A stretch of DNA of 5,817 nt from a virus (taxonomy: Duplodnaviria; Heunggongvirae; Uroviricota; Caudoviricetes): the IMG/VR virus record IMGVR_UViG_2713896784_000022. One strand, 5' to 3'. This document shows positions 2,531 to 5,401 of the stretch, in pieces. The position numbers and the translations under genes are program-made. The first letter of the stretch is position 1. Each line of letters opens with the position of its first letter. The notes under the pieces were generated by a model. It did no database searches. It worked only from the letters and a program-made list of their open reading frames with translations, and was not told where the DNA came from.

Positions 2531-2856
2531 TTTATCCTCCATTGAGGTTCTGGGTTAAAAATGGAGACCAACACGCTGTCACGTGTGGTCGTGCGCCGGA
2601 CACGGATAAGAATCCGGTACTGACAGTTTACTGAAAGGATATTTCCCTGAAAAGTCAGTGCATAACGCGAAAGCGTACGGCGAAGCTCTTTCCCTTAGAA
2701 GGCTTGTCGTTAGATTTCTTCGAACGTGCGCTTCCGGTTGTGGCACTCCGCGAAATGGCGCGGCGGTAAGTATGGCGGGGTTATTCCTTCCCCATTGAGG
2801 ACACCGGGTTGTCAGGTTGACCATACGCTTAAGTGACAACCCCGCTGCAACGCCCT

Positions 2857-2930: not shown

Positions 2931-2988
2931 TTTCTGGTGACGTTTGGCGGTATCAGTTTTACTCCGTGGCTGCTCTGCCGCCCTTTTT
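2931..2988 (+). ncRNA. dicF: DicF-like antisense sRNA (ftsZ translation inhibitor of Qin/dic-type prophages)
   Basis: TTTCTGGTGACGTTTGGCGGTATCAGTTTTACTCCGTGGCTGCTCTGCCGCCCTTTTT matches my memory of E. coli DicF nearly base-for-base (one or two differences). It ends in a GGCGG...CCGCC stem plus U-run and sits about 170 bp upstream of a DicB-like gene, as in the K-12 dicB operon. The exact 5' end (RNase E processing site) cannot be read from sequence. Confidence 0.7.
2946..2988 (+). terminator. Rho-independent terminator forming the 3' end of DicF
   Basis: GGCGG (2946-2950) pairs with CCGCC (2978-2982), followed by C and TTTTT (2984-2988). The loop is large (27 nt), consistent with the DicF structure rather than a minimal terminator. 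Confidence 0.55.
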
Positions 2989-3157
2989 AAAGTGAATTTT
3001 GTGATGCGGTGAATGCGGCTAAGCGCACGCGGAACAGTTAAAACCAAAAACAGTGTTATGGGTGGATTCTCTGTATCCGGCGTTAATTGTTAACTGGTTA
3101 ACGTCACCTGGAGGCACCAGGCACTGCATCACAAAATTCATTGTTGAGGACGCGATA

Positions 3158-3346
3158 ATGGAAACGTTATTACCAAACGTTAATACGTCTGAAGGTTGTT
3201 TTGATATTGGTGTTCTGCTCAGTAACCGGGAGTTTACTGAAGATGCCATTAACATGAGGAAATATGAGCCTTATCTGCTCAATGATAATTCCATACTTTC
3301 CCGAATTGCTCTTCTTGAACTTGGTATTTTCGGAGAACGTCAATGA
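3158..3346 (+). CDS. dicB: DicB-like cell division inhibitor (62 aa)
   Basis: ORF-track frame 3053..3346 trimmed to ATG 3158, which has GAGGA (3145-3149) 8 nt upstream. Product METLLPNVNTSEGCFDIGVLLSNREFTEDAINMRKYEPYLLND... matches the N-terminal half of K-12 DicB as I remember it (MKTLLPNVNTSEGCFEIGV...TEDAIN.RK); the C-terminal half diverges. Same length as DicB (62 aa) and same position after dicF. Confidence 0.7.
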   Translation: METLLPNVNTSEGCFDIGVLLSNREFTEDAINMRKYEPYLLNDNSILSRIALLELGIFGERQ

Positions 3347-3531
3347 CTTCAGCATTTGCACTGATGATGACGGTTTTTCTTATAACGGGTGAATCACAGA
3401 ATGTGATTACCGGAATTTATGCCAGTAAAGAATCCTGCCTCCAGGCAAGAGACGAGCAAAAAATTTCTGGTGAATGCCTCCCGGTAAAAAAAGTATCGCT
3501 GTACCTGAATAACGAAACACCGGCTGGATAA
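3343..3531 (+). CDS. Small protein with hydrophobic N-terminal segment (62 aa); occupies the position of YdfD (Qin lysis protein)
   Basis: ORF-track 3343..3531. ATG overlaps the dicB-like stop (ATGA, coupled translation). N-terminus MTSAFALMMTVFLITG is hydrophobic (signal or membrane-anchor-like) and is followed by a polar, Cys-containing tail. YdfD identity is positional inference only. Confidence 0.55.
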   Translation: MTSAFALMMTVFLITGESQNVITGIYASKESCLQARDEQKISGECLPVKKVSLYLNNETPAG

Positions 3532-3623
3532 CCCTCCAGCCATATTAACACCATACCAACGGATTAAAAATGCCAGCAATGGCAGGGATTTGTTCACCCT
3601 TAAATCTGTAATGAGGTTTATCA

Positions 3624-4868
3624 ATGAGCACTGATAAAGAAGAATTTGCGCTATATTGCGAAGCAAAAAATGACAAAGTCAGAAAACGTCTGGGAATTAA
3701 AGGTGGTTTTTACTGGACTACAGCAAAAAAATTATCTGTTGCCATCTCCCGCTGCATTACCGCAATGGATGACAACGATTATGATGAAGACGACTTTAAA
3801 AAACCCGTTCGCGTCCATTTACCCGTTGTGAATGACCTTCCACCTGAAGGCGTGTTTGATACCGAATTCTGCAACCGATACGAAAAAGGCGGGGAAGATG
3901 GCATTACAATGGTATTTATCGCGCCCTCTCCCTCCGTGCAGGAGAAACCAGCCAGTACTGACAATACCAACGTCAACGGCGAAGACATGACGGAGATTGA
4001 GGAGAATATGCTCCTGCCGGTTTCTGGTCAGGAGCTGCCCATTCGCTGGCTTGCGCAACACGGCAGCGAAAAACCAGTAACGCACGTTGCACGGGAAGAA
4101 CTTCAGGCATTACATATAGCACGGGCGGAAGAACTGCCGGCTGTTACTGCCCTGGCCATTTCTCACAAAACAAAGCTGCTCGACCCGCTGGAGATTCGCG
4201 ACCTTCACAAACTGGTACGCGACACTGACAAAGTTTTCCCTAATCCCGGTAATTCAGACCTGGGACTGATAACTGCTTTTTTCGAGGCATACCTGGACGC
4301 TGACTACACTGATCGGGGTCTGCTGACAAAAGAGTGGATGAAAGGAAATCGTGTTTCGCGTATCACCCGTACGGCTTCCGGTGCAAATGCCGGTGGCGGG
4401 AACAAAACCGATCGCAATCCGAATTTAGTACACACCTTCGATACGCTGGATGTGGAGATTGCAGCAGCCACACTTCCGATGGATTTTAATATTTATGAAA
4501 TTCCGGGCAGCGTTTATCGTCGCGCAAAAGAAATCGTCCTGAAAAGAGAAAGTCCGTTCAAAGAATGGTCCGCAGCACTTCGCGCAACCCCGGGTATTCT
4601 GGACTATTCCCGCGCCGCTATTTTTGCACTTATCCGGAGCGCTCACCCTGAGTTTTATCACTACCCGGGACGCCTTCAGGGGTATATCAACGCCTACTTA
4701 ACGGAGACTGATCACGAGAACCCCAGCAAGGAAACTCTCACTGCTGCACGACATACACCGGAAAAAGATATCCTGGAAGAAGTTAACCGCGAACTGTCTG
4801 CTAAGCAGGAAACAGAAGAAGAAAATGATGAAGAAAAACCGCAACCATCTTGCGCAATGGCAGAATGA
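3624..4868 (+). CDS. Hypothetical acidic protein, 414 aa, unknown function (position corresponds to ydfE of the K-12 Qin locus)
   Basis: ORF-track 3624..4868. GAGG about 7 nt upstream of the ATG. Acidic clusters near the N-terminus (DDNDYDEDDF) and at the C-terminal tail (ETEEENDEEKPQP). No integrase, nuclease or NTPase motif recognised. Its stop lies 16 nt inside the integrase-remnant frame. Confidence 0.7.
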   Translation: MSTDKEEFALYCEAKNDKVRKRLGIKGGFYWTTAKKLSVAISRCITAMDDNDYDEDDFKKPVRVHLPVVNDLPPEGVFDTEFCNRYEKGGEDGITMVFIAPSPSVQEKPASTDNTNVNGEDMTEIEENMLLPVSGQELPIRWLAQHGSEKPVTHVAREELQALHIARAEELPAVTALAISHKTKLLDPLEIRDLHKLVRDTDKVFPNPGNSDLGLITAFFEAYLDADYTDRGLLTKEWMKGNRVSRITRTASGANAGGGNKTDRNPNLVHTFDTLDVEIAAATLPMDFNIYEIPGSVYRRAKEIVLKRESPFKEWSAALRATPGILDYSRAAIFALIRSAHPEFYHYPGRLQGYINAYLTETDHENPSKETLTAARHTPEKDILEEVNRELSAKQETEEENDEEKPQPSCAMAE

Positions 4869-5401
4869 TAATCAGAAGAAATCTGGCAAAAGACCGTTTT
4901 ACAGTACCAAAAACACAGGCGGGAACCAATCGTGTGATTCACCTTATTAAGCCCGCAATCGACGCTCTCCGGAGTCAGATGGCACTAACGAGACTGAGCA
5001 AAGAGCATATCATCGATGTTCACCTCAGAGAATTCGGCAGAACAGAGAAACAAAAATGTACCTTTGTTTTTCAACCTGAAGTGTCAGCGAAAGTAAAAAA
5101 TTATGGCGACCATTTTACCGTTGACTCAATAAGGCAGATGTGGGACGCAGCGGTAAAGCGTGCCGGAATCCGCCATCGCAAATCGTATCAGTCGAGACAC
5201 ACTTATGCCTGCTGGTCGTTAACAGCAGGAGCTAACCCGGCATTCATTGCAAACCAGATGGGCCATGCAGATGCGCAAATGGTGTTTCAGGTGTACGGGA
5301 AATGGATGTCAGAAAATAATAATGCGCAGGTAACGCTGTTAAATACACAGTTAAGCGAGTTTGCCCCAACCATGCCCCATAACGAAGCGATGAAAAGTTA
5401 A
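4850..5401 (+). pseudogene. Truncated tyrosine recombinase (phage integrase) C-terminal catalytic fragment
   Basis: ORF-track 4850..5401 (TTG start; in-frame stop at 4829-4831). Retains the beta-hairpin lysine context (VPKTQAGTNRVIHL), the box II motif SRHTYACWSLTAGANPAFIANQMGHADAQ, and the nucleophile tyrosine (VFQVYGKWM). The N-terminal arm/core-binding domains and the box I arginine (TGxR) are absent. The integrase frame is closed 7 codons upstream of 4850 and the preceding sequence encodes the unrelated 414-aa ORF in another frame. Confidence 0.65.

Follow-up and report, generated by a model that had tools for sequence, protein, structure and literature searches.

A conserved junction-pseudoknot RNA core in the DicF leader of a Qin-like prophage and its occurrence in lambdoid and P1-like phages

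The stretch of 5,817 nucleotides (nt) analysed here as a whole, referred to as the window, is part of the Caudoviricetes record IMGVR_UViG_2713896784_000022 of the IMG/VR database and carries a GC-rich block (2571-2856) directly ahead of the small RNA (sRNA) gene dicF. This block is the untranslated leader of DicF and belongs to the early-left (dicBF) operon of a lambdoid, Qin-like prophage, and its 3' part holds a conserved RNA core of about 115 nt (2737-2851, plus strand) that consists of a four-way junction (P0-P3) with a pseudoknot. The last ~110 nt of the block were found far from dicF in phage genomes, and we give an even chance to the reading that the core serves the sRNAs of the DicF family in cis as a scaffold for their maturation and stability. 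The role as processing substrate of DicF is already established for the homologue in Escherichia coli K-12 and is known in outline. The junction-pseudoknot core, its competition with an upstream helix of the RNase III type and its link to many terminator-sRNAs appear to be undescribed in Rfam 15 and in the searchable literature, in which no earlier account of the core fold was found and which did not cover Faubladier & Bouche 1994 (J Bacteriol 176:1150) and Lobocka 2004.

Fold and conservation of the core

Within the core, helix P0 pairs GUUGUGG (2737-2743) with CUGCAAC (2845-2851), stem P1 pairs CCGCG (2748-2752) with CGCGG (2759-2763), and P2 pairs (C)GGGG (2776-2780) with CCCC(A) (2790-2794). 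Helix P3 is formed by C2804 and G2806-A2814 with U2834-C2842 and G2844, and the pseudoknot joins the strand GUAUGG (2770-2775) of the junction segment J1/2 to CCAUAC (2821-2826) in the 19-nt loop of P3. Two of these stems had been noticed in a first-pass annotation made from the letters of the window, namely the CCGCG/CGCGG stem, which is P1 of the core, and a 9-base-pair (bp) stem GGGUUGUCA/UGACAACCC (2806-2814/2834-2842), which is P3. The long-range helices, the four-way junction and the pseudoknot had been missed.

Pattern scans of species-representative genomes and of IMG/VR yielded 145 loci with 74 distinct cores, and the scanned core loci came from Escherichia, Shigella, Citrobacter, Trabulsiella and Erwinia. 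A covariance model built on this fold matched the window at 2732-2860 with 144 bits and 81 loci at 89-149 bits, with one match per locus and always on the strand of dicF. In the core alignment 95.6% of the cells were paired, compared with 31-55% in slid controls, and nine pairs were changed on both sides; the observed values were reached by none of 500 shuffles, a statistic that overstates independence since the core sequences are closely related (effective number 1.63). Helix P2 occurred in 43 distinct sequences, almost all of which form the same hairpin, whose stem takes about nine different sequences: CGGGG/CCCCG, CUGGG/CCCAG, CCCGGG/CCCGGG, CAGGG/CCCUG, CAGGUG/CACCUG, CUGGGGC/GCUCCAG, CAGGGG/CUCCUG, CGGG/CCCG and GGGU/ACCC. 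The alignment of homologous loci that the first-pass annotation had proposed revealed compensatory exchanges from U-A to C-G in P3, along with exchanges from G-C to A-U, and one pair of the pseudoknot covaries between U-A, U.G and C-G within the lineage of phage P1. Moreover, the unconstrained minimum-energy fold of the isolated core is composed of P0, P1, P2 and P3.

The plus strand of the block folds more stably than dinucleotide-shuffled sequences (z = -2.81; none of 100 shuffles as stable), whereas the minus strand does no better than its shuffles (z = -0.82). G-U pairs are abundant in P0, P2 and P3; together with the finding that only the plus strand exceeds the shuffled sequences, this indicates an RNA on the strand of dicF.

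Further contacts were sought in two ways. A mutual-information scan for additional tertiary pairs picked up nothing but lineage signal, located in the variable stretch of P2 and J2/3, and three scans of viral contigs for more compensatory variants of the pseudoknot, in which many matches were unrelated coding sequence, provided one G.U-compatible change and three uncompensated single changes. The loop of P2 (2781-2800 and its homologues) is always pyrimidine-rich and UCCU-like (UUAUUCCUU, UUCCUCCAUUG, CGACUCCUU and others), and the J2/3 strand often reads GAGGA or AAGGA. This strand could pair with the P2 loop or mimic a Shine-Dalgarno/anti-Shine-Dalgarno pair, in a part of the alignment that is very variable. 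Searches with Rfam 15 detected no family over the block (2571-2856 in the window, E <= 1) or in six other loci (E <= 0.1), in agreement with the first-pass annotation, which had been unable to match the block to a ribozyme, retron or riboswitch and had suggested a covariance-model scan.

The distribution of the core extends to P1, P7 and related plasmid-prophages, in which it lies directly after the C1-controlled promoter Pban, and to phage cdtI, Stx2c phages, Salmonella phage F1055 and a phage labelled Actinobacillus. In every phage locus the core is located downstream of a repressor gene on the early-left strand. In complete E. coli genomes the leader was found at 9,616 places in 4,421 of 5,426 genomes, 506 of these places being on plasmids, and DicF at 6,822 places in 3,993 genomes; the core is the more general element. 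Several metagenome-assembled contigs with the core that are assigned to 'Bacillota', 'Veillonella' and 'Collinsella' look like mis-binned DNA of E. coli or phage P1.

A strong hairpin with a U-tract behind it is present within about 12-130 nt of the core in each of the 78 distinct downstream sequences (three were missed by the automatic terminator finder and are plain by eye). The seeds between core and terminator belong to at least ten unrelated classes, including that of DicF, the DicF seed with other terminators, AGCCACUGCUUU, AACCCAUGUUGAUUACC, ACAUUGCUGUGUGUAG and the type of phage P1. In phage P1 the gene downstream of the unit of core and terminator is ban, and in P1vir growing in an hfq mutant ban was the sole gene of the replication module that was over-induced at 20 min (bioRxiv 10.64898/2025.12.28.696737), an anecdotal observation that could hint at an action of Hfq at this unit. 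In the phage pPE4, which is the one labelled Actinobacillus and has an E. coli-like immunity region, seed and terminator are tandemly duplicated (...CCCGCCACAACAACCCATGTTGATTACC...CCCTTTTT, twice) behind a single core and are followed by kil (locus L006, 2596-2765). Loci of the cdtI/F1055 type carry a near-perfect hairpin of ~19 bp, ACAAAACAGAGAAGAGCA...UGUUCUUCUCUGUUUUGU, after the sRNA terminator (L004, 2670-2790; L005, 2705-2800); its ends resemble the helix upstream of the core in these loci (CACAAC...GUUUUGUGG), and the 3' arm of the terminator with its U-tract (CGCUCUUUUUACAA) resembles boxA.

The DicF leader, its processing and its genetic context

The window covers the immunity region and the early-left part of a lambdoid prophage of the Qin-like kind. 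From 2591 through dicF it shares about 90% identity with the ydfC-dicF spacer of ~340 nt in the Qin prophage of K-12, rising to nearly 100% over the last 130 nt of the spacer, and the order of repressor/Cro, DUF1391, dicF, DicB, DUF1482 and exonuclease VIII genes is common to both. Homology, synteny, strand and the immediate contact with dicF all identify the block as a DicF precursor leader. The block is not DicF itself: the 52-nt Rfam model RF00039 matches 2932-2983 alone (75 bits, E = 9e-16). Many O157, O26, O111 and O121 genomes contain the block with 100% identity in DNA that carries no annotation, and by its sequence the block can be regarded as the O157/O26-type version of the K-12 Qin spacer. 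The suggestion of the first-pass annotation that the block might be a structured leader or processing substrate of DicF is borne out by the homology with K-12, by the published cuts of RNase III and RNase E and by the covariation among 75 distinct homologues.

The block ends at a run of 50 N (2857-2906), which the first-pass annotation had treated as a gap to be closed. The same 13 nt, gctgcaacgccct, stand on either side of the N, and the 100%-identical complete genome NZ_CP033605.1 is continuous across the gap and reads ...GACAACCCCGCUGCAACGCCCUCUGUUAUCAAUUUUCUGGUGAC... at this place. Since complete identical genomes read through and the 13 nt are duplicated, positions 2857-2919 (the 50 N and the second copy of gctgcaacgccct at 2907-2919) represent an assembly artefact, and the block abuts dicF on the same strand, as had been assumed. 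The true length of the gap is zero, and coordinates across it, such as those of a minus-strand open reading frame (ORF) and of the distance to dicF, are shifted by 63.

The block is non-coding. After closure of the gap the minus-strand ORF has 95 amino acids (aa) and the plus-strand ORF 46 aa; neither matched Pfam or PHROGs, and close homologues carry 1-nt and other non-triplet insertions or deletions within the block that break the frames. The earlier view that there is no credible ORF is in line with these data, and resolving the gap does not turn the region into the 3' part of a protein gene. The higher GC content noted before was confirmed as well, with 0.538 for the block (2571-2856) and 0.583 for the core at its 3' part, compared with 0.405 (2000-2570) and 0.421 (2984-3600) in the flanks. 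With respect to its extent, the block was drawn slightly too wide: it holds from ~2591, where the homology with K-12 begins, and the ~20 nt at the left (2571-2590) lie outside the conserved element.

Upstream of the core, two further parts can be distinguished on the plus strand. The accessory 5' part (2591-2660) is an optional module with the hairpins CCGGA/UCCGG (2596-2600/2613-2617) and ACUGAC/GUCAGU (2619-2624/2654-2659), both seen in the minimum-energy or centroid fold. The latter, already pointed out in the first-pass annotation, belongs to the minimum-energy fold, is kept in 64 of 143 homologous loci and is absent from other locus types. It is followed by helix H (2661-2742), in which the strand CAUAACGCGAAAGCGUACGGCGAAG (2661-2685) pairs with CUUCGAACGUGCGCUUCCGGUUGUG (2718-2742) around a variable apical insert (2686-2717). 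Helix H is an imperfect helix of ~22 bp with 6+2+9+5 pairs and a folding free energy of about -30 kcal/mol; it is part of the minimum-energy fold and was predicted for all 34 distinct variants. For its outer 17 pairs the paired fraction is 98.8%, and slid controls give 29-43%. As its variation is limited to wobble exchanges and includes no double compensatory changes, the support for helix H comes from conservation, energy and published cleavage rather than from covariation.

Of the four stem-loops described in the first-pass annotation three thus hold, and a GNRA hairpin ACGC-GAAA-GCGT (2664-2675) does not. Its bases belong to the 5' strand of helix H in all 34 variants, and the hairpin was dropped in favour of this helix; the common variant ACAC-GAAA-GCGC, which would break the hairpin, sits in an internal loop of helix H. 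In the cdtI, F1055 and Erwinia loci helix H is replaced by another long helix, CACAACGAUGAGRGCA.../...UGCUCUCUUCGUUGUG, that ends on the same GUUGUG. The helix of the F1055/Erwinia type encloses hairpins that resemble tRNA T-loops (GGTTCGATTCC; GGGTTCAATTCC; GGTCCGTTCAATTCGGAC; L005, 2390-2500, and L025, ~4400-4530). They match no Rfam family and could be tRNA-derived or Y-RNA-like inserts, and a bacterial Y-RNA or tRNA-like module was rejected as an identity of the block for want of Rfam support and because such hairpins are missing from this window. At two loci, L014 (~2700-2770) and L076 (~5290-5345), helix H lacks its 3' strand and P0 its 5' strand, both lost by an apparent deletion between the two CGCGAAA repeats in helix H and stem P1; these natural variants without P0 retain P2, P3, the pseudoknot and the terminator.

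The processing of DicF is known from K-12, where the sRNA is released from the polycistronic dicBp transcript. Northern blots and primer extension showed that RNase III cuts within the spacer to give a 190-nt pre-DicF and that RNase E generates the 5' end of the 53-nt DicF at the 3' edge of the spacer (PMC10448788). The 190-nt species is lost in an rnc mutant, accumulates upon inactivation of RNase E with concomitant loss of the 53-nt form, and is stable in stationary phase. Its 5' end was mapped within ...gaccgugcgcuuccgguugugg... and the RNase III site inside ...gucgaccgugcgcuuccgguuguggcaac... (PMC10448788, supplementary Fig. S1), and a species of 1,146 nt indicates that a large share of the transcripts stop at the dicF terminator (PMC10448788). 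By its length the 190-nt species corresponds to core, linker and DicF. Counting 190 nt back from the 3' end of DicF after removal of the 63-nt artefact would place the RNase III site, and with it the 5' end of pre-DicF, at ~2731 in the window. This position falls in the 3' strand of helix H, which with its ~22 bp has the dimensions of an RNase III stem (around 20 bp, or about two helical turns, of mostly continuous double-stranded RNA) and is a probable substrate of this enzyme. The core is connected to DicF by the single-stranded linker GCCCUCUGUUAUCAAU (2852-2856, resuming at 2920-2930 past the artefact), at the 3' end of which the RNase E cut is placed according to the RNase E dependence of the 53-nt species (PMC10448788).

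DicF itself, with its seed and Rho-independent terminator, occupies 2931-2983 on the plus strand, as assigned by RF00039, a terminator-like site and the K-12 annotation. Behind it, GUGAAUUUUGUGAUGC (2992-3007) is complementary over 16 bp to GCAUCACAAAAUUCAU (3126-3141), forming a long-range helix on the same strand. A 72-nt DicF species ends 19 nt beyond the 53-nt end (PMC5069750), at ~3002 in the window and within the first strand of this helix. RNase III probably cuts here to make the 3' end of the 72-nt form, on read-through transcripts, and the 5' end of the dicB mRNA. On read-through transcripts the unit of core and sRNA would therefore appear to be bracketed by two helices of the RNase III type. 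The helix closes a dicB leader that resembles STnc100: the dicF-dicB spacer (2981-3190) has a full-length match to this Rfam family that is below threshold (34.7 bits, gathering score 47). A partial STnc100-like match is also present in phage P1 (L003, 3842-3961).

The block lies between dicF and a minus-strand gene for a protein known only as a member of the PHROG family phrog_4274 (2321-2542), which is preceded by the gene of a phrog_2151 protein (1670-2320), likewise known only by its PHROG family, and by that of a DUF1391/YdfA protein (1437-1670). The immunity genes encode an S24/LexA-type CI repressor (587-1225) and, on the minus strand, a P22-type Cro (253-543). DicF is followed by DicB (3158-3346), a DUF1482/YdfD protein (3343-3531), a fragment of exonuclease VIII (3624-4868) and an integrase remnant. 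The untranslated leader that runs from the dicB promoter to ydfA (1340-1436, ...cagggcaatacttcgagttaccaggcagtggtcaggggttaagtagccagcccgaggcgtaagaacatgacggcag) is kept in the pPE4 phage locus (L006, 2290-2400), in which ydfA is truncated, and may represent another structured 5' leader.

Possible roles of the core

The sequence GUUGUG(G) serves both as the end of the 3' strand of helix H and as the 5' strand of P0, which makes the two helices mutually exclusive; the full-length minimum-energy fold picks helix H. According to the reading to which we give an even chance, helix H would form first in the primary transcript, and its cleavage by RNase III would part the upstream mRNA from the intermediate of ~190 nt, the 5' end of which could then close P0. 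The closed core, locked by the pseudoknot between loop and junction, would form the 5' body of this intermediate, protect it and offer the AU-rich linker 3' of P0 to RNase E, which would free the 5'-monophosphorylated seed and the terminator as mature, Hfq-binding sRNA. Both this scaffold role and the switch from helix H to P0 are inferences. As a portable cassette, the core would have been reused in front of at least ten sRNAs of the seed/terminator kind in lambdoid and P1-like phages.

Several observations weigh against this reading, among them the close relationship of the core sequences stated above. P0 is weakly supported, as its 5' strand consists entirely of G and U and any transition opposite to it keeps the pairing, and sequences of the phage P1 type pair only partly in P0 of the model. 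The pseudoknot rests on one covarying pair and one G.U variant, with uncompensated mismatches in three lineages. The junction strand CGGUAAGUAUGG and the 19-nt loop of P3 are near-invariant from phage P1 to the lambdoid phages, whereas P2 varies freely, and such a constraint on junction and loop goes beyond the known needs of RNase E and suggests a specific partner. Additionally, the 'seed' of the cdtI type measures only ~12 nt, and in phage P1 the promoter Pban could alone set the 5' end of the sRNA, yet the whole fold is kept there with compensatory changes.

An unlikely alternative is that the core is a cis-acting RNA that alters transcription at the adjacent terminator, and perhaps at later ones, in the manner of put or of a riboswitch aptamer, thereby setting the balance between the terminated sRNA and read-through into dicB/kil, recE/int or, in phage P1, ban. 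The core is always found in the untranslated, promoter-proximal part of an early operon under the control of a repressor (after dicA/cI, or after Pban in phage P1) and is always followed by a strong intrinsic terminator, with a free energy of about -12 to -28 kcal/mol for the segment of at most 60 nt before the U-tract, that must be read through for the expression of dicB, of exonuclease VIII and integrase, or of ban. Among the early-left ORFs of the window and of an Stx2c phage, none was found to encode an N-like antiterminator. Aptamers and polymerase-binding RNAs typically combine a four-way junction and a pseudoknot with invariant nucleotides in junction and loop and with one freely variable stem, as the core does; in phage P1 the placement of the core right at the 5' end of the transcript also suits termination control better than processing. 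Against these points stand the lack of an Rfam match and of any similarity to put in sequence or structure (the core model found nothing in the immunity region of phage HK022 at E <= 1), the single copy per locus with no partner on the pR side, and the large share of K-12 transcripts, the 1,146-nt species, that do end at the dicF terminator. The spacing between core and terminator varies from ~12 to 100 nt, and no antiterminator pairing conserved across the sRNA classes was found. A GGCGGUA motif recurs in J1/2 and in most 5' arms of the terminators, and when the 190-nt RNA is folded to minimum energy, J1/2 is paired with the 3' arm of the DicF terminator; this pairing is absent in the type of phage P1 and is not predicted in loci of the cdtI type, and a terminator/antiterminator switch using the core is not consistent across the classes. 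A related and possible, if improbable, proposal regards the core as a phage cis-regulatory RNA of a new class, one that would attach to a conserved host machine and choose between a host-targeting sRNA and read-through into the early-left genes; the partner would most plausibly be RNA polymerase during elongation or a factor of termination or processing.

We consider it quite improbable that the core of ~135 nt left by the RNase III and RNase E cuts is itself a functional stable non-coding RNA, with the sRNA as its 3' trailer, that might act in trans as a protein-binding or tRNA-like decoy. The cut of the 190-nt species by RNase E must leave a core fragment, the fold is compact with a 7-bp closing stem, three arms and invariant loops that suggest a specific partner, CCA stands 1-4 nt after P0 in several sRNA classes, and the core is spread more widely than DicF, as the counts given above indicate. 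Phage RNAs that are processed like tRNAs exist, for instance the C4 RNA of P1/P7. A discrete RNA of the size of the core has not been reported, with published probes aimed at dicF or ydfA, and the core was never found without a downstream terminator unit, which favours a coupled function. Its arm lengths and junctions are unlike those of tRNA, and a tRNA or tmRNA identity was discarded after ARAGORN had predicted no such gene (L001, 2900-3600) and Rfam no match to the tRNA clan in the window. It is very unlikely that the block is a generic Rho-proof spacer in an untranslated stretch of ~570 nt, in which the density of hairpins only blocks Rho loading and interference by ribosomes, or that its conservation merely reflects the recent kinship of prophages. 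Rho acts poorly on structured RNA, the untranslated region that stretches from the upstream genes to dicB is long and has a high GC content, and many of the sequences are more than 90% identical; compensatory changes nevertheless hold specific helices in lineages of ~75% identity (phage P1 versus lambdoid phages), junction and loop sequences are invariant while adjacent positions vary, and the module has been exchanged intact between unrelated flanks. It is scarcely credible that the 95-aa or the 46-aa frame is a real gene, even though the minus-strand frame is open and 'hypothetical protein' coding sequences overlap the homologous region in the records of cdtI, F1055 and other phages. A protein-coding identity was rejected on the negative Pfam and PHROGs searches and runs counter to the frame-breaking indels among close homologues, to a variation that tracks RNA pairing instead of codon positions, and to the Prokaryotic Genome Annotation Pipeline (PGAP) of NCBI, which annotates no gene in the block across thousands of genomes.

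DicF is one of the oldest known bacterial sRNAs, and its parent RNA has so far been treated as an anonymous untranslated region; reviews refer to a 'long untranslated region' or to the 3' untranslated region (UTR) of ydfC and do not mention a structure (PMC5069750, PMC9438474). The core is present, often in several copies, in about 80% of the E. coli genomes and is a candidate for inclusion in Rfam as a new family. It sets apart a family of phage sRNAs in which the seeds are exchangeable, which should aid the annotation of prophage sRNAs in enterohaemorrhagic E. coli and other pathogens, and P2, P3, the pseudoknot and the choice between helix H and P0 provide concrete targets for mutations that address the production of DicF through RNase III and RNase E. 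Moreover, the core opens a route to the question of how early-left operons of lambdoid phages lacking N, and the ban operon of phage P1, pass a strong promoter-proximal terminator. Interest would be high if it proved to control termination or to bind a host factor; if it does bind a host machine, these lambdoid and P1-like phages would possess a put-like or riboswitch-like solution.

Comparison with known systems

The closest relative of the locus is the dicBF operon of the K-12 Qin prophage (Faubladier 1990; Ragunathan 2023, PMC10448788), with which it shares the position in the operon, the sequence of helix H apart from the insert, the downstream genes dicB, ydfD and recE and the order of RNase III and RNase E processing. 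The two loci differ in the upstream genes, which are ydfB and ydfC in K-12 and those for phrog_2151 and, on the minus strand, phrog_4274 here, and in the apical insert of helix H. The 'dicF-like region' after Pban of phage P1 (AF234172, 68791-68892) has the same core with stems P1, P2 and P3, the pseudoknot and compensatory changes; behind it come a short spacer and a terminator hairpin, on the strand of the repressor-controlled early operon. Unlike the window, phage P1 has neither helix H nor upstream ORFs, its core starts ~20-25 nt past the transcription start, its spacer and terminator are unrelated to DicF, and its equivalent of P0 is not clear-cut. The annotation of this region (Lobocka 2004) spans only P3 and the terminator and assigns no structure or function.

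The putL and putR sites of phage HK022 are structured cis-acting RNAs in the promoter-proximal part of early operons of a lambdoid phage that has no N-type protein (PMC9378689), and the core resembles them in lying upstream of terminators that need to be read through. The put RNAs comprise ~70 nt in two stem-loops with a V shape and a triplex, whereas the core is a junction of ~115 nt with a pseudoknot. They are located on both the PL and the PR side; the core gave one early-left match in each of the 81 loci, the length of which, a few kb, does not exclude distant copies. An identity with put was rejected on these structural grounds and because the core model had no match in HK022 (20000-32000), a span in which the put positions themselves were not located. 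By the layout of the genome this span presumably holds PL, PR and the put sites.

With riboswitches that act by termination the core shares a multi-helix junction with a pseudoknot, invariant junction nucleotides, a variable peripheral stem and a terminator behind it. It differs from them in having no match to a known Rfam aptamer, a variable spacing to the terminator, no conserved antiterminator alternative among the folds found and a gene context that suggests no ligand. A further parallel concerns sRNAs that are cut out of longer transcripts. The sRNA 3'ETS-leuZ is released by RNase E just past a folded tRNA and ends at the terminator of the operon, and stem-loops reportedly direct the RNase E cut that makes MicL-S, as Updegrove is said to have described in 2019. 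DicF is itself listed among the sRNAs derived from intra-operonic regions or 3' UTRs (PMC9438474). In all three cases a folded RNA lies right 5' of an AU-rich RNase E site and the sRNA ends at an intrinsic terminator. The guides of MicL and 3'ETS-leuZ are simple hairpins or a real tRNA, whereas the RNA ahead of DicF is a dedicated junction-pseudoknot with invariant loops, common to many unrelated seeds and, in the window, preceded by a helix of the RNase III type.

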